A stretch of 64,000 nt of DNA from Gemmatimonadota bacterium (GCA_016720805.1 JADKJZ010000014.1:1053162-1117161), one strand, 5' to 3'; counted from the first letter of the stretch, positions 5,218-54,913 are shown. Numbers and translations: made by a program. The notes: generated from the letters alone by a model not told the origin.

Positions 5218-5326
5218 CGGTCCGTGGGGTTGGGAGGGATACCGGATACTCCCCCGGCACGGGGGTGGCGTCAAGGTGGGGGGCGGGACGGGCTTGGCCA
5301 CCCCCCTCCGGCTATATTTCCCAGTT

Positions 5327-6016: not shown

Positions 6017-6027
6017 CCGACGACCAC

Positions 6028-10107: not shown

Positions 10108-10123
10108 GCGGTCAGGCCCGGTC

Positions 10124-11122: not shown

Positions 11123-11474
11123 GCGGGCGGGGGTAGGCGGGCTGGTTGTCCGGGTCGCCGGCACCCGCTGGTTCATCCCGGTCACCGGCGTGATCGAGGT
11201 CCTCCGCGAGGCGGTCGTGGCGCGGGTCCCGGGCACCCCGCCGGCCGTCCGGGGGATGGTCAATCACCGCGGCCGGGTGCTGACCGTGGCCGACCCTATC
11301 CGGGCATTGGGGCTGTCGGGCGATACTGGGGGAGAGGTCGACGTGGTCGTCGTGGACGCCGGGGGACACCGCTTTGCGGTGGCCGTCGACGGGGTCGTGG
11401 AGCTGGCCGCCGAGCCGCGCACGGGCCTTGCAACGTTGGACCTCGACCAGGTCGCGACCGCGATCTTTGCCTGA
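11115..11474 (+). CDS. cheW: CheW-like coupling protein
   Basis: 'VVRVAGTRWFIPVTGVIEVL ... VPGTPPAVRGMVNHRGRVLTVADP' fits the CheW fold. ATG at 11115 (TTG at 11097 also possible) overlaps the rluD stop. Confidence 0.8.
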   Translation: MAERAGVGGLVVRVAGTRWFIPVTGVIEVLREAVVARVPGTPPAVRGMVNHRGRVLTVADPIRALGLSGDTGGEVDVVVVDAGGHRFAVAVDGVVELAAEPRTGLATLDLDQVATAIFA

Positions 11475-11494: not shown

Positions 11495-11860
11495 GTGGCC
11501 CATCGGGTGCTCATCTGCGACGACGCGATCTTCATGCGAACCATGATCGCCGACATTCTCACCGGGGCCGGCTATGACGTCGTCGGCGAGGCCGAAAGCG
11601 GCTTGCAGGCCGTCGAGCGGTACAAGGCGCTCCTCCCCGACATCGTGACCATGGACATCGTCATGCCGGACATGGGCGGAATCGACGCCGTCCGGGCGAT
11701 CGTCACGGCCCACCCCGACGCCAAGATCCTGATGTGCTCCGCCATGGGGCAGCAGGCGCTCGTGGTCGAGGCGATTCAGGCCGGCGCCAAGGACTTCGTC
11801 GTCAAGCCGTTCCAGCCGGCCCGCGTCCTCGAGGCCGTCCAGCGCGTTATGGCGGGATGA
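11495..11860 (+). CDS. cheY: CheY-like single-domain response regulator
   Basis: Receiver residues are present: 'VLICDD', 'DIVTMDIVMPDMGG', 'ILMCSA', 'VVKPF'. GGAGG lies 6 nt upstream of the GTG start. Confidence 0.9.
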   Translation: MAHRVLICDDAIFMRTMIADILTGAGYDVVGEAESGLQAVERYKALLPDIVTMDIVMPDMGGIDAVRAIVTAHPDAKILMCSAMGQQALVVEAIQAGAKDFVVKPFQPARVLEAVQRVMAG

Positions 11861-13356
11861 CCGAGGCGCGGCGGGCGCGGTACGTCGCGCTCTTCGCGGC
11901 GGAGTCGCGCTCGCTGCTGGCCGGCGCGCGCCGCGCCCTCGCGGCCTGGCTCGACGCCCCCGCCGAGCGCGCCCCGGCCGACGAAGTCTTCCGCACGCTT
12001 CACACCATCAAAGGAATGGCCGCCTCGCTCGAATACGAGGCGATCGCCGAACTGGCGCACACCACGGAGAGCGCGCTGGTCGCCGTGCGCGACAGCGGGG
12101 ACCCGGCGGACCGGACCTGGCTTCGTGACCTCGAGGCGACCCTCGACCAGATCGCCCTCGGCTGCGAAGCCGCCGCCGCGGCCGAAGGGGAGGCTGCACC
12201 GGGCGAACAGGCCGCCGCACCGGCCCGCATCGTCCGCGTCGACCTCGATCGCCTCGACGCGCTGTTCGAGGACCTCGGCGGGTTGGTGACCGCTCGGCAG
12301 GAACTCGAACGCCACGCCGAGCGGGACACCCTCTCGCCGGTGGCTCGTGCGGCGCAGGTGATGGCGCGCCGCCTCGACACGCTCCAGGACCGGATTCTCC
12401 ATGTTCGCCTCGCCCCCTTGAGCGAGGTGTTCGAGCGAATTCCGCCGATCGTGCGCGACCTTGCCCGGCAGCTTGGCAAGGAGGTGACGGTGCAGGTGCA
12501 GGGCGAGGCGCTGGAGGTGGACCGGGCCGTGCTCGATCAACTGGCCGAACCGCTGATCCACCTGCTGCGAAACGCCGTGGACCACGGCCTCGAGTCGCCG
12601 GACGTGCGCCGCGCGCTCGGCAAGCGCCCCGCCGGGTCGGTGACGCTCAAGGCACGCCGTGACCGGGATTCGGTGGTGCTCGAACTGAGCGATGATGGCC
12701 GCGGTATCGATCGAGCGGCCGTCGCCGCGCGGGCGGTGGCGCAGGGGATTCTCGAATCCGATGCTTCGCTCAATGACGACGGCTTGCTCGCCGTGCTGGC
12801 GCGCCCCGGCTTCAGCACCGCCGCCTCGGTGACGGATGTCTCCGGCCGCGGCGTCGGGCTCGATGTCGTGGCGTCTCGATTGCATGACCTCGGCGCATCG
12901 CTATCGCTCACCACGGTGCCCGGGCGGGGAACGACCTTCGTGGTGCGGTTGCCGACCCGGCTCGGCATTGTCCGTGCGCTGGTCGCCTCGATCGGTGAGG
13001 AGCGGTACGTGATGCCGCTGACGCACGTCGCCGAGTTCCTGCCATGGGAGCCGGAGGCGGTGCAACACGTTGATGGCCGGGCGGTCATCGAGTTGCGCGG
13101 CGAGCTGATCCCGGTGCTCGACCTGCGGCGCTTGCTGCTCTATCGCGGCGAGGCGCCGCCGGCTCGACGTCCGGCGCTGGTGTTCGAAGCCAACGGGCAG
13201 CGGGTCGCCCTCCTGGCCGATGCGATTCACGGCCAGGTCGATGCCGTGGTGCAGCCGCTGGATCGACCGCGCGGGATGCCACGGTGGATCACCGGCGCCA
13301 CGGTCCTCGACAACGGGCGACCGGCGTTGCTGCTCGACCTGGCCAGCGTAGTGTAG
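11857..13356 (+). CDS. cheA: Chemotaxis histidine kinase CheA (compact form)
   Basis: HPt 'FRTLHTIKGMAA', N-box 'HLLRNAVDHGLE', G1 'DDGRGID', G2 'SGRGVGLDVV', C-terminal CheW-like domain. ATGA overlap with cheY. Confidence 0.9.
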   Translation: MTEARRARYVALFAAESRSLLAGARRALAAWLDAPAERAPADEVFRTLHTIKGMAASLEYEAIAELAHTTESALVAVRDSGDPADRTWLRDLEATLDQIALGCEAAAAAEGEAAPGEQAAAPARIVRVDLDRLDALFEDLGGLVTARQELERHAERDTLSPVARAAQVMARRLDTLQDRILHVRLAPLSEVFERIPPIVRDLARQLGKEVTVQVQGEALEVDRAVLDQLAEPLIHLLRNAVDHGLESPDVRRALGKRPAGSVTLKARRDRDSVVLELSDDGRGIDRAAVAARAVAQGILESDASLNDDGLLAVLARPGFSTAASVTDVSGRGVGLDVVASRLHDLGASLSLTTVPGRGTTFVVRLPTRLGIVRALVASIGEERYVMPLTHVAEFLPWEPEAVQHVDGRAVIELRGELIPVLDLRRLLLYRGEAPPARRPALVFEANGQRVALLADAIHGQVDAVVQPLDRPRGMPRWITGATVLDNGRPALLLDLASVV

Positions 13357-13357
13357 G

Positions 13358-13393
13358 AATCGATGATCGATGATCGATGATCGATCATCGATT
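13358..13393. repeat. Heptamer-palindrome element (GATGATC)n(GATCATC), hairpin-forming
   Basis: aatcgatgatcga / tgatcgatga / tcgatcatcgatt: 13358-13370 is the exact reverse complement of 13381-13393. Sits in the 61-nt gap between the cheA stop and the cheC start. Confidence 0.85.
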
Positions 13394-13417
13394 TGTCCGA
13401 CTCTCCTTGGAGCGCAG

Positions 13418-14038
13418 ATGACGAATCCCAATGACCTCGACACTCTCCGGCGCGATGGGCTGCGCGAGGTGGCCACGATCGGCGCGGGGCATGCCGCGAC
13501 GGCGTTGTCGCAGCTCACCGATCGGCGGATCATGATCTCGGTGCCGCAAGTGCGGCGCGTGAACTTCGGCGAAGTGCCGGCGATGGTGTCGCTCTTTGGC
13601 GACCATGTCGCCGTGGTGGCGATGCGGATGCTGGGCGACCTCACCGGGCGCTCGCTGCTGGTCTTCGGCGAGGCCGATGCGACGCGACTCTGCGACTTGA
13701 TCCTCCGCCGTCCGATCGGTCCGCAACGCGCCCTCGGCGAACTCGAGCAGTCCGGGCTCAAGGAGGTCGGCAACATCGTCTGCTCGGCCTACCTGACCGC
13801 GCTGTCGAACTTCATGGGGATGATGCTGCTCCCCTCCGTGCCCTCGTTGACGATCGGTCGGACTGCCGACGCCATCGCGGCGACCGTCGATCCGAACGAG
13901 TCGCGATCGGACCTGGTCTTCTGTGTCGACACAGCCTTCCGCGCGGAAGGCGCGGAGGCGCCGCTGACCGGTGCGTTTCTGTTGATGCCTGACCAGGCCT
14001 CGATCCAGGCGATCCTCGAGGCGATCCGGCTCGACTGA
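13418..14038 (+). CDS. cheC: CheC-family CheY-P phosphatase-like protein
   Basis: Two CheC repeats. The second has an intact S-x3-E-x2-N-x22-P site ('SGLKEVGNIVCSAYLTALSNFMGMMLLPSVP'); the first reads D-x3-E-x2-T ('DGLREVAT'). ATG at 13418 is preceded by GGAG; the track ORF's MIDDRSS prefix is repeat sequence. Confidence 0.75.
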   Translation: MTNPNDLDTLRRDGLREVATIGAGHAATALSQLTDRRIMISVPQVRRVNFGEVPAMVSLFGDHVAVVAMRMLGDLTGRSLLVFGEADATRLCDLILRRPIGPQRALGELEQSGLKEVGNIVCSAYLTALSNFMGMMLLPSVPSLTIGRTADAIAATVDPNESRSDLVFCVDTAFRAEGAEAPLTGAFLLMPDQASIQAILEAIRLD

Positions 14039-14039
14039 G

Positions 14040-15194
14040 ATGGCCACCCCCGAGGGTCCGGAAGCGGCGCGCATCGCGGCGCTGCGCCGACGCCTCGGCG
14101 CGGCCTCTCCCGCGACGCTCACCAACTTCGCCTGGTTTGCGGCCCGTCGCGGCAGCCACGCGGCGGCGATCGAGGCCGTGCGGGAGGCCGTGGCGCAACC
14201 CGGCGCACCACGTGCGGCGTGGCAGACGCTCGAACGGCTGGTCACGGGCCGGAACGATGGGCTCCTCCTCGCCCCGGCCAGCGCGACCCGGCACCCGCCG
14301 GTCGACATCTCCGGCGGGGCATCGGCATTGGCGGCCGCCGTCGCGGCGCACCGCGAAGGCGCCCTCGCCGTCGCGGAGACCTGCTACCTCGCCGCCGTCT
14401 CCGTCTCGCATCTCGCGGCGGCCGCGTCCGACGGGCTGGCGGTGCTCCACGAACAACGCCACGAGCAGGACGCCGCGACCAGTGCGTGGCACCGTGCCAT
14501 CGCGGGCGGTGCCCCGTGGGCCACGCACAATCATGCGCTTGCCCTCTTGCGGCGCGGCGACGTGCCAGCCGCGCGTCGCGCGATCGCGCAGGCGTTGACG
14601 GCAAGTGCACCCACGGCGGCGCTGTATGCCCTCGCGGGCTACGCGGCACTCCTCGACGGTGCGGCCGCCGATGCCCTGCAGTCGCTTGAAGTCGCCGTGG
14701 AACTCGAGCACGATCTGGCCCGCGCGCACTTCACCCTCGGCCTCGCGCATGACAGGCTCGGTCACCCCGCGGCCGCGCTCGCCGCGACGCGTCGTGGGCT
14801 GCTGCTCTCGCCGTGGTACCTGCCGCAGGTATGGCTGTTGACGCCGGTGCCCGGCAGTCTCCCGGTCGAGCTCCCGGCGGGGAGCGAGCGTCCCGGCGCG
14901 TCCGACGGCACCGACGAGGTGCTGCTGGCGCTTGGTCGTTCACTGCTCGAGACCGGACATCTGGGCGAATCGCTCGCCGTCTTCGATCAAGTGCTGGTGC
15001 GCGATCCGGCACAACCCGCGGCCCTCTTCCACCGCGGCGTCGTGCTGGCCAAGCTGCGCCGATACGATGAAGCGCTGGCGGACTGGGAGGCGGTGGACCG
15101 CACCGATCCGGAGAGCCCGCTCGGCGCGATGTCTCGCCGCCACGCCCGTTCCGCACGTCAACTCGCCGCGCTCTTTGCCGCGCGGGCGGGCTGA
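14040..15194 (+). CDS. TPR-repeat protein
   Basis: Ala/Leu-rich helical repeats with TPR-like periodicity, clearest at the C-terminus ('ALFHRGVVLAKLRRYDEALADWEAV'). Starts 1 nt after the cheC stop. Confidence 0.6.
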   Translation: MATPEGPEAARIAALRRRLGAASPATLTNFAWFAARRGSHAAAIEAVREAVAQPGAPRAAWQTLERLVTGRNDGLLLAPASATRHPPVDISGGASALAAAVAAHREGALAVAETCYLAAVSVSHLAAAASDGLAVLHEQRHEQDAATSAWHRAIAGGAPWATHNHALALLRRGDVPAARRAIAQALTASAPTAALYALAGYAALLDGAAADALQSLEVAVELEHDLARAHFTLGLAHDRLGHPAAALAATRRGLLLSPWYLPQVWLLTPVPGSLPVELPAGSERPGASDGTDEVLLALGRSLLETGHLGESLAVFDQVLVRDPAQPAALFHRGVVLAKLRRYDEALADWEAVDRTDPESPLGAMSRRHARSARQLAALFAARAG

Positions 15195-15197
15195 CCG

Positions 15198-16115
15198 ATG
15201 CACGGGCCACTGCACGAGATCGGGTTGGTCGAGGTGCTGCAACTGCTGGGACGCGGCGCGCGGCACGGGACCTTGCAGGTGGTCGGACTGGATCCGGCGG
15301 CACCGCGCACGGTCAGGTTGTGCGCCGGCAGGGTCGTCTCGGTCGAACCCGACGCGGGCGAGGCGGCCGTCGAACGAGCCCTGGTGGCACGCCACCTCTC
15401 GATCACCGATGCGATCCGACCCGACCTCGCAGCCGAGTCGCGCGACGCGATGCGGCAAGAACTCGCGATGCGGACCCTTGCGGCGATGCTGCACTGGACG
15501 CGGGGGCGATTCGACTTCGCCGAGGAGCCGGTCCGCGACGGACCGCTCGACATCGCGGTCGACACCATCCTGCTGGAATTGGTCGGGCGGGAGTCGCAGC
15601 GGGTGGAATTGGCGGCCCTTCTCGACGACTTCCACGCCATTCCGGTCTTTGTGGCGGATGATCGGCTCGCGCTGGGAACGCCACCGGAGCTCGATCCGCT
15701 TGATTGGCGGATCCTCGATGCGGTGGATGGACGCCGGGACGTCAGTGCCATCGCCGGAACCCTCGACGAGCCGCTGGAAACCGTTGGTGATCGCGTCCGG
15801 GCACTGCAGGGGGCCACTATACTTGAACTGGCGGCGGCACCGGCCAACGACGCCTTGGCGGCGCGCGCCGCCATCGAGGCGGGCCGCTACGACGACGCGG
15901 TCGCGCTGTTGGAACAGCGGGTCGGCAGTGTCCGCTCCGATCGCGAGGCGTGGCGGTTGCTAGGCCTCGCTGAAGTCGGGGCAGGGCGGTTCGACCGCGC
16001 CATCCGCGCGTGGGAAGCTTGGCAACAGGCCGACCCGACATTGGCGCAGGAAGCCGGGGCCCTGATCGCCGCCGCACGCACCATGCTGGAGGCATTGCAC
16101 GACCATCGTGAGTGA
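15198..16115 (+). CDS. PATAN/DUF4388-domain protein with C-terminal TPR
   Basis: N-terminus 'GPLHEIGLVEVLQLLGRGARHGTLQV' and later 'LHWTRGRFDFAEEP' match the DUF4388 pattern as I recall it. TPR-like tail. Confidence 0.65.
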   Translation: MHGPLHEIGLVEVLQLLGRGARHGTLQVVGLDPAAPRTVRLCAGRVVSVEPDAGEAAVERALVARHLSITDAIRPDLAAESRDAMRQELAMRTLAAMLHWTRGRFDFAEEPVRDGPLDIAVDTILLELVGRESQRVELAALLDDFHAIPVFVADDRLALGTPPELDPLDWRILDAVDGRRDVSAIAGTLDEPLETVGDRVRALQGATILELAAAPANDALAARAAIEAGRYDDAVALLEQRVGSVRSDREAWRLLGLAEVGAGRFDRAIRAWEAWQQADPTLAQEAGALIAAARTMLEALHDHRE

Positions 16116-16863
16116 TTCGTTCTCCCCTTCGTCGACGCCTGTGGGCGCGCCGTCGTTCCTCGACCTCGGGGAACGGTTGCGGCAGCATGGGCAACTCGAC
16201 GCGGCCGCGACCGTCACGATGAACGGGCTGCGTCAATGGCCGACCCTCGCCGCCGGCCATGACTTGCTCGGTCGCATCGAGGCCGATCGGGGCGATGACC
16301 GCGCCGCCGCCGAGGCGTGGGGCGCCGCACTCGCCTGCGAGCCCGGTCACCTGGGCGCGCTCAAGGGGCTCGCCTTCCTCGCCTTCCGCGGCCACGACTT
16401 CGCGGCTGCCGAGCGGCATCTCGAATTGGCCGTGGCCCGCGCGCCGCACGATGCCGCGTTGCTCGGCGCGCTCGACCGGGTGCGCAGTCGTCGCCCGTCT
16501 GGGCCCGCGGATGAACCAGTTCGACTCGATGATCCGGCCAGTGGACTGCTTCTCTGCGACGCCGACGGGATGCGACTGAGTGGAGGCGTTGGTCCCGAGC
16601 GCAATGACGACGCCGCGGATGCGGCGGCGGCGGAGACGGCCGGGTTGCTCCGTGAAGCGACCCGCAGCGCGCGGCTTCTCGGCCTCGGCGGCGTCAAGCA
16701 TCTGGTCGTCGAGTGTGCCGACGCTCGCCTCGCGGTGGTCCCGGTCGCCGCTGGCGCCGCACTCCTCGCCGTGCGGAGCGCCGCAACGCCGATCGGCCGA
16801 CTGCTGGCCATCGCACAGCGCGCCGCTGGCGTGGCAACGCAGTGGATCGGTGGATTGGAATGA
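16108..16863 (+). CDS. TPR + Roadblock/LC7-like domain protein
   Basis: N-terminal TPR-like helices. The C-terminal ~100 aa ('GLLLCDADGMRLSGG ... GGVKHLVVECADARLAVVPVAAGAALLAV') follows the Roadblock alpha-beta pattern. GTG start overlaps the upstream gene by 8 nt. Confidence 0.55.
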   Translation: MSDSFSPSSTPVGAPSFLDLGERLRQHGQLDAAATVTMNGLRQWPTLAAGHDLLGRIEADRGDDRAAAEAWGAALACEPGHLGALKGLAFLAFRGHDFAAAERHLELAVARAPHDAALLGALDRVRSRRPSGPADEPVRLDDPASGLLLCDADGMRLSGGVGPERNDDAADAAAAETAGLLREATRSARLLGLGGVKHLVVECADARLAVVPVAAGAALLAVRSAATPIGRLLAIAQRAAGVATQWIGGLE

Positions 16864-17213
16864 GTCTCGAGCGGTGGGAACGGCTGCTGTGCGAGGTGAT
16901 CGCGATCCCCGGCGTGCGGGGCGCCGCGCTCGTGGCGAGCGATGACGGTCTCGTCGTGGCCGAGGCGGCGATGGATCAACTGGACGGCGCCGATGTGGCC
17001 GCACTCGTTGCGGCGCTGGTCTCGCGCGCCACGCGCGTGGCGCGCAGCATTCCGACCGCTCCACCGCGGTTGATCCATCTCGCGGGTGACCGCGGCACCT
17101 TGCTCGCCGTCGACGCCGGCTCTCCGCTCTGGCTGGTGGCGGTCGCGGAGCCTGGTGCCGAGGTGGGTCGCCTGCGGGTGTTGTTGGGCGATCTCGCCGG
17201 GGCGGTGGACTGA
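16860..17213 (+). CDS. Roadblock/LC7 (MglB-like) protein
   Basis: 117 aa: 'IPGVRGAALVASDDGLVVAEA ... IHLAGDRGTLLAVDAGSPLWLVAVAEPGAEVGRL' is a typical Roadblock pattern. ATGA overlap with the upstream gene. Confidence 0.7.
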   Translation: MSLERWERLLCEVIAIPGVRGAALVASDDGLVVAEAAMDQLDGADVAALVAALVSRATRVARSIPTAPPRLIHLAGDRGTLLAVDAGSPLWLVAVAEPGAEVGRLRVLLGDLAGAVD

Positions 17214-17680
17214 TGCGCGTCCTCGAACCCTGGGTGGAGGCGCCGCTCGCCGAGTTCCTGCGTGAGTCCGCGGCTCGACTCGCCTTGATCACCACGGCCT
17301 CCGGCCAGGTCATCGCCCAACATGGCTTCGCCCGGTCGCTCGATGTCATGGCCGCGGCCTCGCTCGGCGCCGGCATCCTGGCCACAACCGGCGAACTTGC
17401 GCGGATGGTGGATGCCACCGGCGGCTACCGGGTGGTGGTGCACCAAGGCGTGCAACGCGGCCTCTGGCTCGCCGGCTTCGACACGCCGCGCGGACGCTGG
17501 ATCGCATTGGTCGCGTTCGGGGAGCAATCCACGGTTGGCCTCGTCCGGCTCTTCTTCCAGCGCTTCGTCGAGCGGCTCGCGGCCGCCGCCCCGCGCAGCG
17601 TGCCGGTGCGAGAGGTGCTGGCCGAAGGATTCGAGCGCGAACTCGACGCGTCATTGCGCGCCCTCTTCGGGGGGAGCTGA
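17213..17680 (+). CDS. Second stand-alone Roadblock/LC7-like protein
   Basis: 'ARLALITTASGQVIAQHG ... VVVHQGVQRGLWLAGFDTPRGRWIALVAFGEQSTVGLV' has the same fold pattern but is more divergent. 1-nt overlap (TGATG) with the upstream gene. Confidence 0.55.
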   Translation: MRVLEPWVEAPLAEFLRESAARLALITTASGQVIAQHGFARSLDVMAAASLGAGILATTGELARMVDATGGYRVVVHQGVQRGLWLAGFDTPRGRWIALVAFGEQSTVGLVRLFFQRFVERLAAAAPRSVPVREVLAEGFERELDASLRALFGGS

Positions 17681-17682: not shown

Positions 17683-18288
17683 ATGGCGCGCCTCGACCAG
17701 GATGCCAGGACGCTCTCGCTCACGTTGGTGGTGTATGGCGCCGCGCGCGCCGGGAAGAGTGCCTTGCTGCGGGCCATTCACGAACGGATCGCGGTGGCGC
17801 ACCGCGGCGACGAGGAACCGCTCGGCGAGCCATCCGATGTCGGCCTGCCCCTCAACTGGGTGCCGCTCGACCTGGGTGACGTCGCGGGGTGGCGCACGCG
17901 CGTCCACCTCTACGCCGTGCCGGCGCAAGAGCAGGCCGACGCCACGCGGCGACTGGTGCTGGCCCAAGCCGATGGCGTCCTCTTCGTGGTCGATGCGCAG
18001 GCCAGCCGGCTCGAGGCCAACGTCGCGGCGCTTGCCGCGCTCCACGCGCAATGGCCCGAAGGGAACGGGACGACGCGCGTGCTGCCGGTGGTCTTCGTGG
18101 TGACCAAGCAGGACCTGCCCGAGGAATTGCTGTTGGAAGAGCCCGTGCTCGCCGCGATCCTCAACCCGGAGCACGCGCCGCTCTTCCGTTGCGATCTCGC
18201 GCGGGGCGAAGGCGTCTTCCGCGCACTGCAGTCGCTCATCGGAACCGTGATGCGCCAGGTGGTTGCCTTGCCTGAGACGGCGACGTGA
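17683..18288 (+). CDS. MglA-family Ras-like small GTPase
   Basis: P-loop 'GAARAGKS'. 'RTRVHLYAVPAQ' parallels the MglA 'KTRFHLYTVPGQ' G3 region, 'DGVLFVVDAQASRLEAN' parallels 'DGVVFVADSQIERMEAN', and G4 is 'TKQD' versus NKRD. The comparison is from my memory of Myxococcus MglA. Confidence 0.8.
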   Translation: MARLDQDARTLSLTLVVYGAARAGKSALLRAIHERIAVAHRGDEEPLGEPSDVGLPLNWVPLDLGDVAGWRTRVHLYAVPAQEQADATRRLVLAQADGVLFVVDAQASRLEANVAALAALHAQWPEGNGTTRVLPVVFVVTKQDLPEELLLEEPVLAAILNPEHAPLFRCDLARGEGVFRALQSLIGTVMRQVVALPETAT

Positions 18289-18295: not shown

Positions 18296-20248
18296 ATGCT
18301 GAATCCTCACGCACGGTTCGCGAGCTTCGTCGTCGGCTCGGCCAACCGACTCGCCTTCACTGCCTCGAAGGCCGTCGCCGAGTCGCCCGGGGCGGTGTAC
18401 AACCCGCTCTTCATCTATGCCCGCCCGGGCCTCGGGAAGACACACCTGCTGATGGCCATCGGGAATGAGGCACTGGCGATCGATGCCTCGCGCGTGGTGG
18501 AGTACGTCACGGTCGATGATTTCGTCGAGGCCTACCAGGCGGCGATTGCGGCAGGGCAGGCGGAGGCCTATCGGCGCCGCTTTACCGAGGCAAACGTCGT
18601 CCTGCTGGATGACGCACAGCTGCTCTCCGACCGCCGCGAGCTGCAGGCTGAGCTGCTCCGCCTGATGGATCTGCTGATGGCCGCGGACCGGCAAATCGTC
18701 CTCGCCGGTGACCGTCCTCCCGAGGAGATCCAGTCGCTGGATGAGCGGTTGATTCGCCGCTTTGCCGGCGGTCTGGTGATCGACATTGGCGCACCGGACT
18801 ACGAGACCCGCCTCGCGATCCTCACCCGTCGCAGCAACGACCGACAGGTGCATTTCGCGCCGGAAGTGCTTGACGTCGTCGCCCAGCTCCCGATCACCAC
18901 CGTGCGCGAGCTCCTGGGTGCGCACAACCGCCTCGTGGCGCAGCAGGCCGTACAGACCGCACCGCTCGCGAGCGACCAGGTGCGCCAACTGATGCTGAGC
19001 CTGGGGCACGGTGCCGTCGTGGTCGAGCCGGTGGTCGCGGAGTCGACAGTGGTGGCGGCGGACGAGTCCCCGGCGCTTGACGAGTTCTCGGACTTCCTCT
19101 CCGATCTCTCGGCGACGGTCGCGGTCCAGGTTGATCGGTGGCGGCAGCGGATCACCGAGGCAATGCTGCGCTTCGGCGCCGAAGGGATGCGGACCTCGCG
19201 CCTCGAGGCACTCCTCGCCGAAGAGGTCGCCGTCGATCCCGCCGAAATCCTCGCCCAGTACGAGGCCGACGTTGAACGGCTGCGCGTCCTCCGGCAGGAG
19301 ATCGAGACGCTCGCCCCCGCGCTGCTCTCCGAACAATCGCTGCACGACCCGGACCTCCTGGCCGAGGCGGAAGCACTCGTCGAGGAGGCGCGCGAGAGCG
19401 GTGCGCCGCTGCCCGGCCCGGTCCCACGCTACACGCTCGCCGCCTTTGCCGTCGGGCAGACGTCGCGACATGTCGTCGAGGCGATCCACACCGCCGCGAC
19501 CGCCCCCGGGCAGCGCTACAACCCGATGGTGATCGTCGGGCGTTCGGGCACCGGCAAGAGTCATCTACTCCATGCCTTTGGCCACGAATTGCGCGCCGCC
19601 GGCCTCAAGCGTGTGGCCGTCTTCGATGCCAAGCAGTTCGTCGACGACCTGGTGGCCGCCCTCGCCGATGGCTCGATCACGCGCTGGCGGCATCGGCTCC
19701 GACGCGTCGACGCGCTGCTGCTCGACAACGTCGCGGTCCTTGCCGGCAAGGAGCGTTCGCAGGAGGAGCTGTACCTGCTGTACAACCTGCTGCTCGAGTC
19801 GGGACGGCAGATGGCCTTCACCACCACGGTCACGCCGTCGCAACTGGAGGGGTTCGAGCCGCGACTCGCGACGCGGCTCGCCGGCGGACTCGTGCTCGAG
19901 CTTGGGGCCCCGGATCGGGAGGCGCGCGTGCAGGAGGTGGTTCGCCTCCTCGGCGCCCTGGCGAACGACGCCGATCTGGTCGACTATCTCGCCGCTCGCC
20001 CCGCCGTCACCCTCCGCGATACGCAGCAGCTGGTGCAACGACTGCTCGCGGCTGCGGAGGAGCGCCAGGCGCCGCTGACGTTGATCACCGCGCGCAGCAT
20101 CCTCGATGGCACTGCCGCTCCGGCGCCCCGACCGCCCCGGCGAGGCAGCGGACTCCTCGCCCCGGGTGGTGGTGCCATTCGGTCCCGTGAGAAGATGATC
20201 GAGACGTGGCCCGACATCGCCGAACGGTTGATGGAGGAGTGGAGCTGA
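18296..20248 (+). CDS. Protein with two tandem DnaA/Hda-like AAA+ modules, no DnaA domain IV
   Basis: Module 1: 'FVVGSANRLA', Walker A 'ARPGLGKTHLL', Walker B 'VVLLDDAQLL', 'QIVLAGDRPPEEI', 'LDERLIRRFAGGLVIDIGAPDYETRLAIL'. Module 2: 'GRSGTGKSHLL', 'LLLDNVAVL', 'PRLATRLAGGLVLELGAPDREARV'. No C-terminal DnaA-type HTH sequence is visible. Confidence 0.8.
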   Translation: MLNPHARFASFVVGSANRLAFTASKAVAESPGAVYNPLFIYARPGLGKTHLLMAIGNEALAIDASRVVEYVTVDDFVEAYQAAIAAGQAEAYRRRFTEANVVLLDDAQLLSDRRELQAELLRLMDLLMAADRQIVLAGDRPPEEIQSLDERLIRRFAGGLVIDIGAPDYETRLAILTRRSNDRQVHFAPEVLDVVAQLPITTVRELLGAHNRLVAQQAVQTAPLASDQVRQLMLSLGHGAVVVEPVVAESTVVAADESPALDEFSDFLSDLSATVAVQVDRWRQRITEAMLRFGAEGMRTSRLEALLAEEVAVDPAEILAQYEADVERLRVLRQEIETLAPALLSEQSLHDPDLLAEAEALVEEARESGAPLPGPVPRYTLAAFAVGQTSRHVVEAIHTAATAPGQRYNPMVIVGRSGTGKSHLLHAFGHELRAAGLKRVAVFDAKQFVDDLVAALADGSITRWRHRLRRVDALLLDNVAVLAGKERSQEELYLLYNLLLESGRQMAFTTTVTPSQLEGFEPRLATRLAGGLVLELGAPDREARVQEVVRLLGALANDADLVDYLAARPAVTLRDTQQLVQRLLAAAEERQAPLTLITARSILDGTAAPAPRPPRRGSGLLAPGGGAIRSREKMIETWPDIAERLMEEWS

Positions 20249-21870
20249 TGGCGATCAAGGGCTCACTCCGCGAAGCGTCGCTGGCCGACGTCGTGCAACT
20301 GCTCTTCCTGGGGCGCCGCACCGGCTGCCTCTCCGTGGCCAACGAGCGGAACTTCGGTTCGATCTGGTTTGACGACGGCTGGATCACCTTCGCCGGCATG
20401 GTCTCGCGCCCCGATCGCCTCGGCGAGCGCCTTCTCGCGGCCGGGCGTCTGCGTCCCGAGCAGTTGGCGCAGGCCATCGCGGTGCAGCAGGCCATGCCGG
20501 GGCAGCGTCTTGGGGCCGTCCTGCGTCAGTTGGGCTACCTCACCCCCGAGGACGTCGAGGGCGAAGTCCGCCGACAGGTCGAGGAGACGATCTACACCCT
20601 CTTCACCTGGACCAGCGGGACCTTCTCGTTCGAGGCCGGCGTACGCCCCGAGGATCCCGAGGCGGCGCTGCGGCTGAATCCCGACGGACTGCTGCTCGAG
20701 GGCGCTCGACGCGTCGACGAGTGGAGTGTCATCGCCAAGAAGATCCCTTCGCTCGATGCGGTCTTCGCGCTCGAGGGCGATGTCCGCGGCGGTGCCGAGG
20801 GTGATGAGGCACTGGTGGAGACGGAGCGGCGCCTGCTGCCGTTGCTCGATGGCATTCGCACGGCCCGCGACCTGATGGACTCCACCGGGCTGACCGACTT
20901 CGAGGTGTGCCGCGTCCTGTATGGACTGCTGAGCGCTGGCCGCCTCCGGCGGGTCGCCACGGCGCCCGCCGCGCCCGCACGCGAGAGTGGCTCGCGCCTC
21001 GACGAGCATCGCAACCTCGGCATTGCCTTCTATCGCACCGGCATGCTGGCGGAAGCGGACCGCGAGTTCCGCCGCGTGTCGGAGTTGCGGCCGGAGAATG
21101 GTGAGGGACCGTTCCACCTCGGGCTGATCGCGCTGCGCGAGGCGCGCTGGGAAGACGCGATCACCCAACTGAAGCTCGCGGCCGAGCGCAGCGGTCCGCG
21201 CCCCGCCGTGCTCCACAACCTTGCCCTCGCGTTCGAGGCGCTTGGTCGACTCGACGAGGCCGACGCCGCCCTCTCCGAGGCGATCCAGCGCGAGAAGGAC
21301 GACCCGCGACTCTGGATCGGCTGGGGCCTGCTTGCGCTGCGCCGTGCCCAGGGGCCGTCGGCGCTGGAGCGCTTCGCGCGGGCACGCGACCTGATTGGTA
21401 CCGCGATCCCGCCGGCCCGCTGGTACTGGGGCTGCGGCTGCGCCCAGGCGCTTTCCGAGGCGTGGCAGGATTCCCTCGCCACCGTGCGTGAGGGCGTCAC
21501 CCAGTACCCGGATCATCCGGTGCTGCGCACGTCGCTGGGGGTCCTGCTCGAGGCGTCCGGTGAAGTGGGTGAGGCCGAGGCGCATTTGCGCCACGCGCTT
21601 GGCGAAGATCCGACCATTCCGCAGATCTCCAAGAACCTCGGCGACCTGCTTTATCGGGCGGGACGATGGGACGAGGCGGAGGAGGCCTACCTGCGCGCCG
21701 CGAAGCTCGAACCGGCCCTGGGCGACGACCTCTTCTTCAAGCTCGGCAATCTGGCCTGCCGGCGGGCCGACATGGCCACGGCCCGGCAGCATTGGGAGGA
21801 AGCGGTGCGTCTCAACCCTGAGCACGCGCTGGCGCGGGCCAACCTCAGTGGTTCCCGGGCGGGTCAATGA
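20248..21870 (+). CDS. PATAN/DUF4388-domain protein with C-terminal TPR
   Basis: 'IKGSLREASLADVVQLLFLGRRTGCLSV ... LFTWTSGTFSFEAG' is a DUF4388-like N-terminus, followed by >250 aa of clear TPRs ('GIAFYRTGMLAEADREFRRVSELRPENG'). The ATG shares its A with the upstream stop codon (TGATG). Confidence 0.7.
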   Translation: MAIKGSLREASLADVVQLLFLGRRTGCLSVANERNFGSIWFDDGWITFAGMVSRPDRLGERLLAAGRLRPEQLAQAIAVQQAMPGQRLGAVLRQLGYLTPEDVEGEVRRQVEETIYTLFTWTSGTFSFEAGVRPEDPEAALRLNPDGLLLEGARRVDEWSVIAKKIPSLDAVFALEGDVRGGAEGDEALVETERRLLPLLDGIRTARDLMDSTGLTDFEVCRVLYGLLSAGRLRRVATAPAAPARESGSRLDEHRNLGIAFYRTGMLAEADREFRRVSELRPENGEGPFHLGLIALREARWEDAITQLKLAAERSGPRPAVLHNLALAFEALGRLDEADAALSEAIQREKDDPRLWIGWGLLALRRAQGPSALERFARARDLIGTAIPPARWYWGCGCAQALSEAWQDSLATVREGVTQYPDHPVLRTSLGVLLEASGEVGEAEAHLRHALGEDPTIPQISKNLGDLLYRAGRWDEAEEAYLRAAKLEPALGDDLFFKLGNLACRRADMATARQHWEEAVRLNPEHALARANLSGSRAGQ

Positions 21871-22706
21871 GCGACGAGACCCTGCCGGCACTGCAGGCAG
21901 AATACGCGCGACTCGCGTCGGCACTGGCGACCGCACCCTCGGCCGAACAGCGCGCACTGATCAAGGCCGACATCGTCACCCTGTTCCGGCGCGCCGAGAC
22001 GTTGATCGCGGAGCTTGCCACGTTCAAGGAGTCGATCCGCGAGTTGGTCGATCGCTTCAAGACGTTGCCCGGTGAGGCGGCCGCGTCGGTGCGCCATGAC
22101 CATATCGGCGCGTCGAGCTACATCGAACGTGGCTGGAGTGCGTTGGCCGCAGCGGATTGGACGGCGGCCGCGGCCGCACTCCGCGAGGCGATTGCGCGGG
22201 ACGCCACCAGTACGACGGCGCGGGCGCTCTTGGCGTGGGCGCTGGTGCGCACCGGCGAGGTCGATGCGGCGGTCGCGCTCTGCCGGCCGATGCTCGAGGC
22301 CGACCCGGCGAACGGGCTCGCCCGGGTCGCGGTCGGCGTGGCCCTGCTGCAGCGCGATCAGCTCGACGAGGCCGCCGTCCACCTGAGCCACGTCACCTCG
22401 GGCGCGAGTGCCGATCCTCGCGCGGTCCTCTATGCCCACTACTGGTTGGGCGTGGTCGCGCTGCGTCGCGAGGACTTCGGCGCCGCCGTGGAGTCGCTCC
22501 GCCGCGCCGTGACCCTGGGGCCGAACCTCGGGGAGGGGTGGGCCGAGCTCGGGATCGCCCTCTGGCATGCCGGCGCGCCGGCGGACGCGCGCGAGGCGTG
22601 GCGAGTCGGGGCCGGCATCCGGCACTCGCCGCACCAGACGCGGTGTCGCGATCTGGAGACCGTCACGGCTGCCGGAGGGACGCCGCCACGCTGGTCCCCG
22701 TCCTGA
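21867..22706 (+). CDS. Coiled-coil + TPR protein
   Basis: N-terminal helical segment followed by TPR-like repeats. ATGA overlap with the upstream gene. Confidence 0.55.
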   Translation: MSDETLPALQAEYARLASALATAPSAEQRALIKADIVTLFRRAETLIAELATFKESIRELVDRFKTLPGEAAASVRHDHIGASSYIERGWSALAAADWTAAAAALREAIARDATSTTARALLAWALVRTGEVDAAVALCRPMLEADPANGLARVAVGVALLQRDQLDEAAVHLSHVTSGASADPRAVLYAHYWLGVVALRREDFGAAVESLRRAVTLGPNLGEGWAELGIALWHAGAPADAREAWRVGAGIRHSPHQTRCRDLETVTAAGGTPPRWSPS

Positions 22707-23614
22707 CCCTGCTGCTCGCCCTCCAGGGCGGGCCGGCCCCCCGCGCGGTCGAGTTCACGGTCGGGAATGTCACCGTGGTGACCGTCCCCCGGCTGGAGCC
22801 CCTCGGCCGGCGGTTGGGTGCGGTCGCAGCCGCGCCGCAGCAGTGGCTCGGCCTCGGTCGGATCGCGCTGGGGCCGATCACCCTGGCGATCGTCCCCGAT
22901 CGCACGACCTTCCAGCGGTGGTCCCGGGGCCGACTCCCCTCCTGGGGCGCCGGCATGGCCCTTCCCAACAGCGGCATGGTGCTGCTCCGCGCCGATGGCG
23001 GTGACGTCGATGTCACCCTTCGGCACGAGCTCGCCCACGTGGCACTCCACCGCAAGGTGAAGGTCCGCGTCCCACTCTGGTTCGACGAAGGGTATGCCGT
23101 GTTGGCGTCCCGCGAGTACGGCGGATTGGCGGCGCTGCAGCTCAACCTGGCGGTGGCTGCTGGTCGGGTGCCGACGCTCGCAGCGCTCGATGCCTCGCTG
23201 CGGGGCAGTGAAGGGGATGCCACGGCGGCCTACGCGTTGGCCGCGTCGGCGGTGGCCGAGCTCGGGCGACGGCACCCGACGGGCACGCTCGATCCGCTCC
23301 TCCAGCGGCTGGCGGGGGGCACCCCCTTCGAGGAGGCGGTGCTGGCCACGACCGGCCTCAGCGCGGACCGATTTGCCGACACATGGCACTTGGCGACCCG
23401 TCGGCGGTACAACTGGGGAATCTGGCTGGCGACGGGTGGGGTCTGGGTGGTGCTGGCACTGCTCCTGGCCTGGGCCAAGGCGTATCGTCGGCACCTCGAT
23501 GCACCGCGGCGGGAGGCGCTCAACGTGGGCTGGAGCCTGCCGCCGGATGACGAACCGATTACAACTGACGAATTTCTGCCGATTCCGCTTGACCCACCCG
23601 AGTTGAACCGCTAG
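22643..23614 (+). CDS. Putative membrane-anchored zinc metalloprotease (HExxH...E)
   Basis: 'RHELAHVALHRKVKVRVPLWFDEGYA' is a gluzincin-like HExxH plus a downstream Glu. C-terminal hydrophobic helix 'WGIWLATGGVWVVLALLLAWA'. Start uncertain: GTG at 22643 gives a signal-like N-terminus (LVPVLTLLLALQG). The track ORF start at 22157 overlaps the upstream gene in another frame. Confidence 0.5.
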   Translation: MSRSGDRHGCRRDAATLVPVLTLLLALQGGPAPRAVEFTVGNVTVVTVPRLEPLGRRLGAVAAAPQQWLGLGRIALGPITLAIVPDRTTFQRWSRGRLPSWGAGMALPNSGMVLLRADGGDVDVTLRHELAHVALHRKVKVRVPLWFDEGYAVLASREYGGLAALQLNLAVAAGRVPTLAALDASLRGSEGDATAAYALAASAVAELGRRHPTGTLDPLLQRLAGGTPFEEAVLATTGLSADRFADTWHLATRRRYNWGIWLATGGVWVVLALLLAWAKAYRRHLDAPRREALNVGWSLPPDDEPITTDEFLPIPLDPPELNR

Positions 23615-23969: not shown

Positions 23970-25703
23970 ATGTTGCAGCACGTCATGTCGATCACGCTCA
24001 TCGCGACAGTGGCCTCGGCTTCGCCGGCCCCCTCGCAGATCCGCGCCAATACTTCGATCGGTGGGCGCACTGCTGCGCCGCCGCCGCGCATCATGGTGGC
24101 CAATCCGGCCCTCGCGACCTCGACCGACTCGGCCGCCTCGGTGGCGATCGGCGATGGGATGCGCGACAAGATCACGAAGTCCGTGACCGGGACGTTCACG
24201 GTGCTGACCAAGCGCGACATGAACACGGCGCTCGCTGCCTATGGCTTCGCCGAGAATGAAGTCCTGAACGCGACGTCCGCGATGCGGTTGGCGAACCAGA
24301 TCGACGCGCGGACCGTGGTGACCTCGACGCTGAGCAAGGGCGCCGACGGCCGCTTCTCGCTCATCGTCCGCGTCTCCGGCTCGAGCGCTTCGCTCGATGT
24401 CGGGCATGTGGTGACCATTGCGCAGGCGCCCGGTCAGCCGCTGGCCGACTTCGGCAGCAAGGCTGGCGAGGCGATCGTCCCGGCGCTCAAGGGATGGAAT
24501 GACGCCAAGGCCTGCCTCGATCAGAGCACGACCAAGCTGGACAAGGCCAACGAGGCGGCCCAGAAGGCGTTCCGCGCGCAGCCCGGCCACGGTCTCGCGA
24601 GCTACTGCCTCGCCGAAATCGCCAGCAAGCGTGACTCGGCTGGTGCCGCCACCATGCAGGCGTGGCAGGATGTCACCAAGGCCGACCAGTACTCGCTGAC
24701 GGCGTGGCAGCACATTGCGTCCATTCACGCGAACAAGGGCGATTCGGCCAAGGTCGTCGAGACGTACCAGCAGATGTTGCGCGTCGCGCCGACGAACCAG
24801 CTCCTGCGCGACCAGTCGTACAAGGTCTTCCAGGGCTACGGCCGTCCCGACGCCGCGATGCAGGTCGTCGACGAAGGGATCAAGATGGATCCGGCCAACA
24901 CCGACTGGTACGACCTGAAGAGCAACGTCTGCATCGGCAAGGGCGATCTCGGCTGCGCCGTGGCCTCGCTCGAGGAGCTCTTCTCGATCGACTCGACCAA
25001 GGCCGACACCAACTTCTACGCCAAGATCCTCTACGCCGCGAAGGAGAAGCCGGACACCGCCAAGTACCTGATGTGGGCCAAGCGCGGTGCCGCCAAGTAC
25101 GACAGCCGCGCCGACATCCTCGAGGAGCTGGCGATCGCGTACGGGTGGACCGGCCAGTCCGACTCGTCGGTGGCCACCGCCCGCAAGATGATCATGGTCG
25201 ACGATACCAAGACCGACGCGCTGATGCGGGTGGTAAAGTCGTTGCTCGACGGGAAGAAGTACCGCGAGGCGACCTCGCTGGCGTCGACCGTCAACGGGCT
25301 GTCCGATGTCGAGACCAAGAACACATACGGAGCAATGCTCGTGCGCTCCGCTGACGAGGTTCGCTCGGCGACTCCGCCGGACAACGCGCTCCTGATCCAG
25401 ATGAGCGATGCCATCCTTTCCTCGGGAACAACGAACAATCAGGTGATCGTCCTCGCCAACTTCTTCATCTCGGCGGCCTTGGCCGGCGACGTGCAGGAGA
25501 TGTCCAAGACGGTGCGCACTCCGCAGGCGACCTGCGAGTCGACGAAGACGTACGAGGCCGTGCTGGCGAAGATCGAGCCGGCACTTGTTTCTGCCGCCAC
25601 GAGTCCGACGGCGCAGATCGCGGACTTTGCCAAGCGGTTCCTGCCTTCCGTGCAGAGCGAAAAGGTCGAAGTCGTCAAGATGCTCGCCCAGCGCTGCAAG
25701 TAG
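23970..25703 (+). CDS. Secreted/periplasmic TPR-like protein
   Basis: Signal-like N-terminus (MSITLIATVASASPAPS), GGAGG 11 nt upstream of the ATG, and helical-repeat C-terminal two thirds. Lys-rich and visibly less GC-rich than its neighbours. No specific family recognised. Confidence 0.6.
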   Translation: MLQHVMSITLIATVASASPAPSQIRANTSIGGRTAAPPPRIMVANPALATSTDSAASVAIGDGMRDKITKSVTGTFTVLTKRDMNTALAAYGFAENEVLNATSAMRLANQIDARTVVTSTLSKGADGRFSLIVRVSGSSASLDVGHVVTIAQAPGQPLADFGSKAGEAIVPALKGWNDAKACLDQSTTKLDKANEAAQKAFRAQPGHGLASYCLAEIASKRDSAGAATMQAWQDVTKADQYSLTAWQHIASIHANKGDSAKVVETYQQMLRVAPTNQLLRDQSYKVFQGYGRPDAAMQVVDEGIKMDPANTDWYDLKSNVCIGKGDLGCAVASLEELFSIDSTKADTNFYAKILYAAKEKPDTAKYLMWAKRGAAKYDSRADILEELAIAYGWTGQSDSSVATARKMIMVDDTKTDALMRVVKSLLDGKKYREATSLASTVNGLSDVETKNTYGAMLVRSADEVRSATPPDNALLIQMSDAILSSGTTNNQVIVLANFFISAALAGDVQEMSKTVRTPQATCESTKTYEAVLAKIEPALVSAATSPTAQIADFAKRFLPSVQSEKVEVVKMLAQRCK

Positions 25704-25717
25704 CCCTTCCCACGACG

Positions 25718-25747
25718 GGGCGGGTCGCCTATATTGGCGACCTGCCC
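25718..25747 (+). terminator. Possible stem-loop downstream of the TPR gene
   Basis: gggcgggtcgcc-tatatt-ggcgacctgccc: 12-bp stem with one mismatch. There is no following T-tract, so terminator function is uncertain. Confidence 0.3.
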
Positions 25748-53705: not shown

Positions 53706-53751
53706 GTGCATTCGCGAGCACGCAGCTCCCTCGCTGCGCTCGGGATGACAT
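53706..53751. repeat. 'GTGCATTCGCGAGCACGCAG' box + short GC-rich element, copy C
   Basis: The same 20-nt box as at 52477-52496, followed by ctccctcgctgcgctcgggatgacat (reverse complement atgtcatcccgagcgcagcgagggag). Can fold as cgagcacgcagc-tccctc-gctgcgctcg. Confidence 0.75.
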
Positions 53752-53782: not shown

Positions 53783-53792
53783 GCCCTGGGGA

Positions 53793-54845: not shown

Positions 54846-54913
54846 CTTCTGTCACCCAACTGTCATCTTGTCGCCATCTGTCGCCCCAATATTCGAAAAT
54901 CTCCACCCCATCC

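Follow-up and report, generated by a model that had tools for sequence, protein, structure and literature searches.

How an ATPase of the replication-initiator type comes to be encoded among chemotaxis-like and polarity genes, and what it might do there, is the question raised by one gene of a Gemmatimonadota bacterium. The gene (positions 18296..20248, stop codon included) lies on the plus strand of a 64,000-nt stretch of DNA (GCA_016720805.1 JADKJZ010000014.1:1053162-1117161), referred to here as the window, from whose start coordinates are counted. The window has a G+C content of ~69% and carries nearly all of its genes on the plus strand, including the whole gene block described below. The encoded protein of 650 residues, defined by its open reading frame (ORF) and translation and by two matches to the Bac_DnaA family, is termed here the tandem DnaA protein. 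To our knowledge, the ATPase core of DnaA is regarded as dedicated to origin opening, and Hda and the helicase loaders are its sole well-known off-shoots. The evidence presented below suggests that in tandem DnaA an initiator ATPase has been re-used as a signaling switch, and we give roughly even odds (about 0.5) that the protein is an ATP-gated assembly or adaptor subunit of a signaling module centered on PATAN and TPR proteins.

The presence of two DnaA domain-III modules in this ORF is real and well past chance. Pfam Bac_DnaA (PF00308) was matched twice, at residues 2-163 (E 3.3e-46) and ~392-549 (E 2e-36), and the NCBIfam model for DnaA, TIGR00362, was aligned only at profile positions 104-335 of 437, which represent domain III and the lid. 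Aligned with each other over 234 residues, the modules show 33% identity (BLASTP E 3e-32). In phmmer searches of PDB sequences, module 1 (M1) matched B. subtilis DnaA with an E-value of 1.5e-47 in an ungapped alignment and module 2 (M2) with an E-value of 4e-31; Hda was matched by M2 only (E 2e-7).

M1 (18296..19000, residues 1-235) is a DnaA-type AAA+ core with its lid and a complete motif set, consisting of Walker A (GLGKT; 18428-18442, residues 45-49), Walker B (LLDD; 18602-18613, residues 103-106), the sensor-1 'GDR' within AGDRPP (18704-18721, residues 137-142), the box VII arginines in ERLIRRF (18743-18763, residues 150-156) and sensor II (VRELLGA; 18902-18922, residues 203-209). M2 (19421..20110, residues 376-605), also a DnaA-type core with lid, has Walker A (GTGKS; 19547-19561, residues 418-422), Walker B reading LLDN (19718-19729, residues 475-478), a degenerate sensor 1 (TTTVTP; 19820-19837, residues 509-514), box VII arginines in PRLATRL (19859-19879, residues 522-528) and sensor II (TLRDTQ; 20009-20026, residues 572-577), and it keeps the DnaA-like segment 'LAGKERSQEE'. 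An earlier reading of this DNA made without database searches (the sequence-only reading) had proposed two such modules, the first with intact catalytic motifs; both proposals hold, and the motifs that it quoted are all where it had placed them.

The structural comparison leads to the same assignment. In an AlphaFold model built on an alignment of 53 divergent family members (mean predicted local distance difference test score, pLDDT, 87.7; predicted template modeling score, pTM, 0.47), the best Foldseek match was domain III of B. subtilis DnaA (8bv3), with a template modeling (TM) score of 0.94, a root-mean-square deviation (rmsd) of 1.3 A and 40% identity, followed by the DnaA proteins of Thermotoga and Aquifex; Hda structures were much weaker matches. 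Both modules of the model show a two-helix insertion between strands beta2 and beta3 (helices 73-85 and 89-97 in M1, 445-458 and 461-469 in M2). Together with the ungapped DnaA alignments, this insertion indicates that the initiator-specific motif is retained in both modules. In the initiator clade this helical insertion favors open spiral oligomers.

What surrounds the modules differs from DnaA. The protein begins at the first residues of domain III, so that domain I and the linker domain II are absent, and homologues share the same N-terminus (MLNP...), which supports the start codon, an ATG located 7 nt past the stop of the GTPase gene upstream. DnaA_N (PF11638, domain I) was not found at permissive Pfam thresholds and Bac_DnaA_C (PF08299) was not found when C-terminal pieces were searched to E<=1. 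The absence of domains I, II and IV, noted earlier by eye, is thus borne out by Pfam and NCBIfam searches and by the structure comparison. Taken together, the profiles and alignments indicate that both modules derive from domain III of DnaA, within the initiator clade, and that the parts of the initiator that bind the origin have been lost.

Between the modules lie a variable, disordered Ala/Pro-rich spacer (19001..19084, residues 236-263; pLDDT <50 at residues 241-263, low column conservation) and a family-specific helical domain (19085..19399, residues 264-368) with the conserved pattern DEFxxFLSD...WR...EG.RT.RL. Modeled alone with AF2, this linker domain was all helical, with a pLDDT of 88 and a pTM of 0.72. 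The possibility that it is a decayed DnaA domain IV or has some other known fold was considered and rejected, as hhalign against a domain IV alignment gave a probability of 0.1 and Foldseek found no fold match in the PDB (best E 4). M2 is followed by a disordered Pro/Gly/Arg-rich tether (20111..20179, residues 606-628; pLDDT <50 at residues 611-630) and then by an acidic C-terminal peptide, RSREKM(I/V)xxWPD..ER(L/I)(L/I)EE(W) (20180..20245). This peptide, and not any part of the ATPase modules, is the most constant signature of the family, with E632, K633, W638 and P639 each at least 90% conserved among the 53 divergent members. The 8-residue pattern EKM[VI]WxWP alone retrieved 535 metagenome-contig matches, 457 of which were confirmed as relatives. 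The peptide is kept in reduced loci that have no GTPase gene and is absent where a receiver (REC) domain replaces it, and its conservation makes it a candidate docking motif.

The family is large and conserved. A word-indexed protein search found at least 120 clusters of full-length homologues at 53-98% identity, in which NCBI-named members are called 'DnaA/Hda family protein' and come from metagenome-assembled genomes (MAGs) of Gemmatimonadales or Gemmatimonadota. An exhaustive search of 1.84 billion representatives added dozens of clusters, formed at 50% identity, whose alignments cover the full length (residues 2-648) at identities as low as ~33%; the named clusters were again from Gemmatimonadota, an assignment that relies on MAG labels. 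Compared with the closest orthologue (L001), the ratio of nonsynonymous to synonymous substitution rates (dN/dS) was 0.037 overall, 0.007 in M1, 0.035 in M2 and 0.078 in the linker, all approximate at a dS of ~0.9, which points to strong purifying selection. Over 16 species at the 70% tier, median identity was 70% for tandem DnaA and 71% for the downstream PATAN-TPR protein, next to 66% for rluD and 67% for mraW, so that tandem DnaA changes at the pace of its downstream neighbor and as slowly as these housekeeping genes.

The Walker A lysine and the first aspartate of Walker B are nearly invariant in both modules, each being found in at least 52 of the 53 divergent members. The M1 sensor-1 residues D139/R140 and box VII residues R151/R155 are kept in 73/76 loci, and so is the arginine finger of M2, R527 (73/76). 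Loss of the sensor-1 'SDR' from M2 is family-wide, the exceptions being P0126, P0142 and P0163, in which both modules are fully DnaA-like. The second Walker B acid of M2 is Asp in 45 and Asn in 6 of the 53 aligned members. The sequence-only reading had taken both features as signs of a hydrolysis-impaired M2; the loss of sensor 1 holds throughout the family, whereas the 'DN' of the window is a minority, lineage-specific state and most members have DD.

Further evidence for a role in signaling comes from the genes next to tandem DnaA. Its TGA overlaps the ATG of a PATAN(DUF4388)-TPR gene, the second of two in the block (PATAN2; 20248-21870, DUF4388 E 2e-33 plus TPRs), in the form TGATG with GGAGGAG upstream, an arrangement that indicates translational coupling. 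This PATAN-TPR gene is directly downstream in 24/24, 3/3, 2/2 and 77/77 assessable loci of the sets compared. Gene order across the full block is conserved in every one of the 24 GTDB species representatives retrieved; the same holds for members at 34-38% identity and for 80 metagenome loci that represent another subclade, and the tail genes of the block are syntenic in all related loci (GTDB representatives and deep members). In this arrangement the GTPase gene immediately precedes tandem DnaA wherever assessable (22/22 among GTDB species representatives, 3/3 among deep members and 46/46 among metagenome loci), and an MglB-like Roadblock gene lies upstream in 44/44 assessable metagenome loci. 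The content of Che genes varies between loci while the core of the block is constant; for example, locus L025 has gained CheR/CheD/CheB (13563-15931), placed after the PATAN-TPR gene, and CheW and CheA are missing from L026.

Two departures from this arrangement are informative. In L030 and L031 only Roadblock, tandem DnaA, PATAN-TPR and Peptidase_MA genes are present, with neither a GTPase gene nor Che genes, and L031 retains the MglB-like Roadblock orthologue. In L033 and L034 a string of CheW-CheY-CheA-AAA-CheW-CheC-TPR-PATAN-tandem DnaA is found at an unrelated genomic site, without a GTPase or Roadblock gene and away from the division and cell wall (dcw) cluster that adjoins the block elsewhere; the L034 MAG is labelled Candidatus Cloacimonetes. 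The CheY of these two loci is 66-68% identical to that of the window, and CheA and CheC are also orthologous. A conserved linkage to the GTPase, which had been suspected from the window alone, was therefore found in most loci but not in L030, L031, L033 and L034, all of which keep an adjacent PATAN gene. By this comparison of loci, the constant partner of tandem DnaA is a PATAN protein, usually PATAN-TPR, followed by TPR, Che and Roadblock proteins, and the GTPase is a clade-specific though very stable addition.

In the window, the block starts with CheW (11097-11474), CheY (11495-11860), CheA (11857-13356, its start overlapping the CheY stop) and CheC/CheX (13370-14038), all assigned by Pfam, and continues with a TPR protein (14040-15194, Pfam TPR families), the first PATAN(DUF4388)-TPR protein (15198-16115; DUF4388 E 9e-11 plus TPR) and a TPR-Roadblock fusion (16108-16863; Pfam Robl_LC7 and TPR). 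A second Roadblock/LC7 protein (16860-17213; Robl_LC7 E 1.4e-9) has an ATG that overlaps the preceding stop (ATGA), and it is followed by the MglB-like Roadblock/LC7 protein (17213-17680), for which the NCBIfam MglB match (E 2.3e-6) is below cut-off and Pfam Robl_LC7 is weak. The MglA-family GTPase (17683-18288), tandem DnaA and PATAN2 come next, and the tail of the block is made up of a TPR protein (21867-22706), a Peptidase_MA_2-like protein (~22775-23614) and another TPR protein (23970-25703), all by Pfam. Two DUF4388, three Robl_LC7, CheW/Y/A/C and one MglA homologue are thus packed tightly into a single block, in which several junctions are start/stop overlaps of 1-4 nt and terminator-like sites are not above chance. 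Genes for MCP, CheB and CheR were not found in this window with Pfam.

The GTPase matches the MglA proteins of T. thermophilus and M. xanthus with an E-value of 5e-28 (phmmer) and is the fastest-evolving gene of the block (median identity 46%). In an alignment of 25 orthologues, the window protein keeps K25 and Q82 and has V53, A78 and A81 in place of R53, T78 and G81; its G4 motif is TKQD instead of NKxD. All five residues (K25/R53/T78/G81/Q82) are kept in 54/76 GTPase orthologues encoded beside tandem DnaA genes. When L001-L024 were compared with L020, L025-L027 and L036-L115, R53 and T78 were found to be lost in the window's subclade, with G81 or Q82 often lost as well; the GTPase of this subclade may accordingly be GTP-locked or a pseudo-GTPase. 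Compensation between a degenerate MglA and an intact M1 was considered and dropped, as no correlation was found (canonical MglA with full M1, n=51; degenerate MglA with full M1, n=22). Separately, the C-terminal third of the GTPase orthologue in L023 (~9392-9990) is out of register (…CRAIFPRCWCSPSATCPRNCC…), probably because of a frameshift or an assembly error.

Related proteins show that domain III of DnaA has been joined to signaling domains in other settings also. P0186 (L028, 9249-11465) carries two DnaA-III modules and, where the conserved tail would be, a C-terminal receiver domain. Its gene has Hpt-REC-Hpt-REC genes on the downstream side and genes for a hybrid histidine kinase and an RR-HD-GYP-type protein on the upstream side, and by its domains the protein resembles a response regulator whose output is of the DnaA type. 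In L029 (4309-15923; GCA_030620115.1, JAUXFG010000024.1), four consecutive MshEN paralogues are encoded between pilD and pilB-pilT-pilC-pilS-pilT-pilR. Three of these combine MshEN with one or two DnaA-III modules, one of them with 1,990 residues and its two modules ~1,300 residues apart, and the fourth (436 residues) is MshEN only; named relatives belong to Candidatus Fermentibacteria, and no description of MshEN-DnaA-III paralogues was found in open-access papers and preprints. MshEN is a c-di-GMP-binding domain and the N-terminal domain of pilus ATPases. P0232 joins a TPR array of 1,100 residues to one DnaA-III module. The suggestion that tandem DnaA might be a repurposed AAA+ switch, one of two alternatives left by the sequence-only reading, is favored by these fusions to REC, MshEN and TPR domains.

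In a neighbor-joining (NJ) tree without support values, the M1s and the M2s of the tail-bearing family form separate groups, which implies that the duplication predates the family; modules fused to MshEN or TPR, together with P0163/P0167, fall nearer to genuine DnaA in the same tree, so that several recruitments are possible. Among other architectures noted in passing, P0193 (673 residues) has two domain-III modules (41-271 and 338-569) and a genuine domain IV signature (DHTTV at 639); it is a DnaA whose ATPase was duplicated or else an artefact of assembly. Two modules without the family tail are also present in P0246 and P0209. P0265 (536 residues) and P0258 (692 residues) have a single DnaA-III module and, behind it, a C-terminal region that is conserved but unrelated, …GG..LLDG.(D/E)YL…F..V..F.RR(L/M).D…, and appear from this layout to be another DnaA architecture without domain IV.

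If tandem DnaA is a cytoplasmic assembly subunit of the signaling module, its motif states suggest the following mechanism. ATP would be bound by both modules, with M1 as the hydrolyzing site and M2 as a slow or non-hydrolyzing regulatory site that would still offer an arginine finger; the latter is proposed because sensor 1 and, in this lineage, the second Walker B acid are absent. By analogy with DnaA, ORC/Cdc6 or DnaC, ATP would gate a head-to-tail assembly of modules from the same chain, from different chains or both, and the assemblies would be open oligomers and not closed rings. The tethered C-terminal EKMxxxWP...EE peptide would then dock the assembly onto a partner, most likely the coupled PATAN-TPR protein, and the Roadblock/MglA pair and phosphorylated CheY (CheY-P) would set the time and place of assembly. 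TPR domains commonly bind peptides like this acidic tail, and MglA and TPR effectors control pili in Myxococcus. The output would probably not be origin firing but the control of a polar or envelope machine akin to type IV pili, as judged from this role of MglA and TPR effectors, from the MshEN-DnaA-III fusions in a pilus operon and from the contact between PATAN domains and pilus motor proteins. The latter contact was reported in Synechocystis, where PATAN domains bind PilB1 and PilC (10.1101/2021.06.11.447907). Moreover, an earlier prediction has Roadblock proteins as general regulators of NTPases (cited in PMC4316618). The tandem DnaA protein is the only NTPase encoded beside the Roadblock gene of L030 and L031, and a direct Roadblock-AAA+ contact is therefore conceivable.

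Several points weigh against this assembly mechanism. Synteny within Gemmatimonadota is weak evidence of a functional link when taken alone, because the housekeeping flanks (rluD, mraW) are conserved too, and the argument for such a link therefore rests on few independent contexts (L030/L031 and L033/L034) and on translational coupling. The connection to type IV pili is indirect, as it draws on cyanobacterial PATAN literature and on a fusion in another phylum; there are no pilus genes in the window, and in the unsupported NJ tree the MshEN-fused modules do not clearly group with the tandem DnaA family. The mutual placement of M1 and M2 is undefined in the single-chain model (pTM 0.47), in which the domains themselves are well defined. 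The deep members L025 and L026 lack the M1 arginines and sensor 1, so that ATP hydrolysis at M1 is not needed universally. Finally, M1 is much more like genuine DnaA (E 1.5e-47; 40% identity when the structures are aligned) than a pure scaffold would need to be, perhaps because contacts with DnaA or with DNA constrain it.

This last point leads to the most interesting alternative, an Hda-like action on DnaA, which was also the first of the two functions suggested from the sequence alone and which we regard as unlikely but deserving of attention. As a replication regulator of the Hda type, tandem DnaA would co-assemble with DnaA-ATP through AAA+ contacts and either stimulate hydrolysis by means of an arginine finger or cap and poison the DnaA filament, such that the chemosensory or polarity state would gate initiation. 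Hda is a domain-III-only DnaA relative able to regulate DnaA, and we know of no Hda- or YabA-type regulator in Gemmatimonadota. DnaA is the nearest AAA+ relative of either module, as seen in the E-values against B. subtilis DnaA given above for both; the box VII arginines, sensor II and the initiator-specific helices are kept, the constraint on M1 is extreme (dN/dS 0.007), and the block is located between the divIVA-ileS string and the dcw cluster. This proximity to dcw is, however, missing from L033 and L034. Moreover, the protein has no N-terminal extension, and no clamp-binding motif of the QL[SP]LPL type was found in any conserved segment of the family alignment. The Hda model TIGR03420 scored 141.8 against a cut-off of 194.8, even though this score is summed over two modules, and the HdaA and PRK08084 models were far below cut-off. 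DnaA domain I, which would mediate DnaA-DnaA or DnaB contacts, is missing, and only 2 one-mismatch DnaA boxes were found in 64 kb, both far from the gene, with neither dnaA nor dnaN in the window. Every conserved neighbor is a signaling protein, and REC, MshEN or TPR domains occur in fusions with related modules. Replication control after the fashion of Hda, as originally proposed, is thus disfavored, given the missing clamp motif, the sub-threshold Hda score and modules that are far closer to DnaA than to Hda.

A more specific form of this idea, to which we assign a slim chance, is that tandem DnaA is a DnaA mimic that couples the chemosensory/MglA polarity switch to initiation. Without domains for origin binding or helicase loading, it would join or cap DnaA-ATP assemblies or use its arginine fingers to fire their ATPase under the control of PATAN-TPR, Roadblock and CheY-P, as a signal-regulated, non-proteobacterial counterpart of the regulatory inactivation of DnaA (RIDA). 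If true, this could help explain cell-cycle asymmetry in a phylum with polar appendages and asymmetric fission (PMC11271474). A link to 'budding', which the name of the phylum brings to mind, was rejected, as time-lapse work shows FtsZ-based binary fission in which the polar spheres are not daughter cells (PMC11271474). An origin region or second dnaA was likewise rejected for the window, where there is neither another DnaA-like ORF nor a cluster of DnaA boxes.

Similarly doubtful is an ATP-dependent, sequence-independent binder of DNA or the nucleoid, for which the chromosome would be a matrix that positions a polarity or division module, following the logic of ParA/PomZ. Single-stranded DNA is bound by domain III of DnaA, and IstB and DnaC are initiator-clade helpers. 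M2 keeps the 'LAGKERSQEE' segment (K485 in 31/53, R487 in 38/53 and Q489 in 48/53 members), and where B. subtilis has I190 it carries a hydrophobic residue (V or I in 34/53); these positions contact single-stranded DNA in DnaA (E. coli V211, R245; Aquifex structure 3R8F). In addition, IstB_IS21 is the second-best Pfam family and the block adjoins the dcw cluster in Gemmatimonadota. The equivalent positions in M1 are, by contrast, polar or variable (H, Q or R at position 81; R, Q or H at position 113), and these segments are also fold elements, so that their conservation is not specific for DNA binding. The protein has neither a DNA-binding domain nor a basic tail, its C-terminal peptide being acidic, and the adjacency to dcw is lost in L033 and L034.

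It is very improbable that tandem DnaA is a closed-ring type II AAA+ machine, that is, an unfoldase or remodeler like ClpB, p97 or NSF that acts on a component of the polarity module. The chain does have two AAA+ modules, and p97, NSF and ClpB come after DnaA in the Foldseek results, but their matches have rmsd values of 16-25 A, in no case under 13.6 A, at 12-16% identity and reflect no more than that the chain contains two AAA+ folds. The modules are both of the initiator clade and have its helical insertion; there is no signal for a classic-clade pore loop or second region of homology, and Pfam AAA scored 41.6 bits where Bac_DnaA scored 280 bits. That the gene is a decaying or functionless DnaA duplicate hitch-hiking in a conserved gene string hardly merits belief, since, although the housekeeping synteny is very old and neighbors can persist without a shared function, dN/dS is 0.04, both modules are intact down to ~33% identity, a family-specific linker domain and a conserved tail are present, the gene is translationally coupled to the next one, and a second lineage has it at a different locus, again beside PATAN and Che genes. 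A component of anti-phage defense was also considered and discarded, as PADLOC gave just a generic P-loop match (mad8, local at Walker A) and none for the neighbors.

Comparison with known systems helps to define what is new. Like DnaA, the protein has modules that match Bac_DnaA and positions 104-335 of TIGR00362, with all domain-III motifs in M1 and a TM score of 0.94; unlike DnaA, it has no domain I/II and no domain IV helix-turn-helix, carries two modules per chain, a novel helical linker, a conserved C-terminal peptide and an M2 without sensor 1, and is encoded in a signaling operon and not at an origin. Hda and HdaA, the agents of RIDA, are also DnaA-derived AAA+ proteins without DNA-binding domains that keep the arginine finger, and they provide a precedent for such proteins acting on AAA+ partners rather than on DNA. 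However, Hda is a single module of ~230-250 residues with an N-terminal clamp-binding motif, which is absent from the two-module tandem DnaA. DnaC, DnaI and IstB are DnaA-related AAA+ proteins without domain IV and are ATP-gated assembly switches, but they are single modules with their own N-terminal partner-binding domains, and tandem DnaA scores far under the helper models (IstB 94.6 against a cut-off of 200; DnaC 34 against 357).

On the signaling side, the MglA-family GTPase, MglB-like Roadblock, CheA/W/Y/C, TPR and PATAN proteins of the window resemble the MglA/MglB and Frz system of Myxococcus, Thermus and Bdellovibrio, and adjacency of PATAN to mglA/mglB genes was noted earlier (PMC4316618). 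In that system no AAA+ or DnaA-like component is described in open-access papers and preprints, whereas the window has one, together with three Roadblock genes and a GTPase of a subclade that lacks R53, T78 and G81. With PatA-type (PATAN-REC) regulators of cyanobacterial phototaxis the block shares PATAN as a chemosensory-type output, and PATAN genes flank tandem DnaA in essentially all loci; the window PATAN is, by contrast, fused to TPR and not to a receiver, there are no nearby pilus genes, and the AAA+ partner is new. The earlier remark that no tandem DnaA-III protein, and no DnaA-like ATPase coupled to an MglA/Roadblock/PATAN module, had been described is in line with our search of open-access papers and preprints, in which neither was found, nor a DnaA-like ATPase in a neighborhood with Che genes. 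Tandem DnaA is thus an initiator-clade AAA+ protein with a new architecture and a new and well-supported functional neighborhood.

Some observations were made on the rest of the window. The block is flanked by dksA-lspA-rluD on one side and by the dcw cluster (mraW ... ftsZ) on the other. The gene string upstream (~4900-11120; also at 1-9500 in L030/L031) comprises exbB-exbD-tonB, a yggS-like gene (Ala_racemase_N), DivIVA, PNP, ileS, a dksA-type zinc finger, lspA and rluD, resembling the B. subtilis order divIVA-ileS-ylyA-lspA-rluD, and by gene order the signaling block looks inserted between this old divIVA-rluD string and the dcw cluster. The sole sigma-70-like promoter match between 8.5 and 27.5 kb, a consensus match only, is at 25707-25735, just past the last TPR gene and 113 nt upstream of mraW, and is consistent with a dcw promoter that marks the end of the signaling block. 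Within the dcw cluster, a DUF2264 gene (E 2e-115; 36574-37857) is found between the ftsW region and murC. Three consecutive plus-strand ORFs of 352, 344 and 375 residues (52647-55951) and an ORF of 694 residues at the start of the window (74-2158) have a coding-like G+C content at third codon positions and no Pfam match at E<=1e-6.

The finding has a practical side for the annotation of this phylum. The TIGR00362 score of tandem DnaA, summed over its modules, is 389 bits and exceeds the cut-off of 344, so that names assigned from such profiles can be wrong, and JGI/IMG labels many members (e.g., P0005, P0126 and P0137) 'chromosomal replication initiator protein DnaA'. For Gemmatimonadota MAGs, this mislabeling can lead to errors in predicting origins and in counting single-copy markers. 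Beyond annotation, a conserved family abundant in soil metagenomes has been found in which the DnaA core was duplicated, stripped of DNA recognition and tied to PATAN/TPR, Roadblock, MglA and Che proteins. Should tandem DnaA instead act on replication, it would provide a direct link of environmental or polarity signaling to initiation in a phylum without a known DnaA regulator. If tandem DnaA is the signaling subunit proposed here, it would represent a new kind of nucleotide switch in bacterial polarity and chemosensory pathways and would provide a concrete partner for PATAN-TPR proteins.

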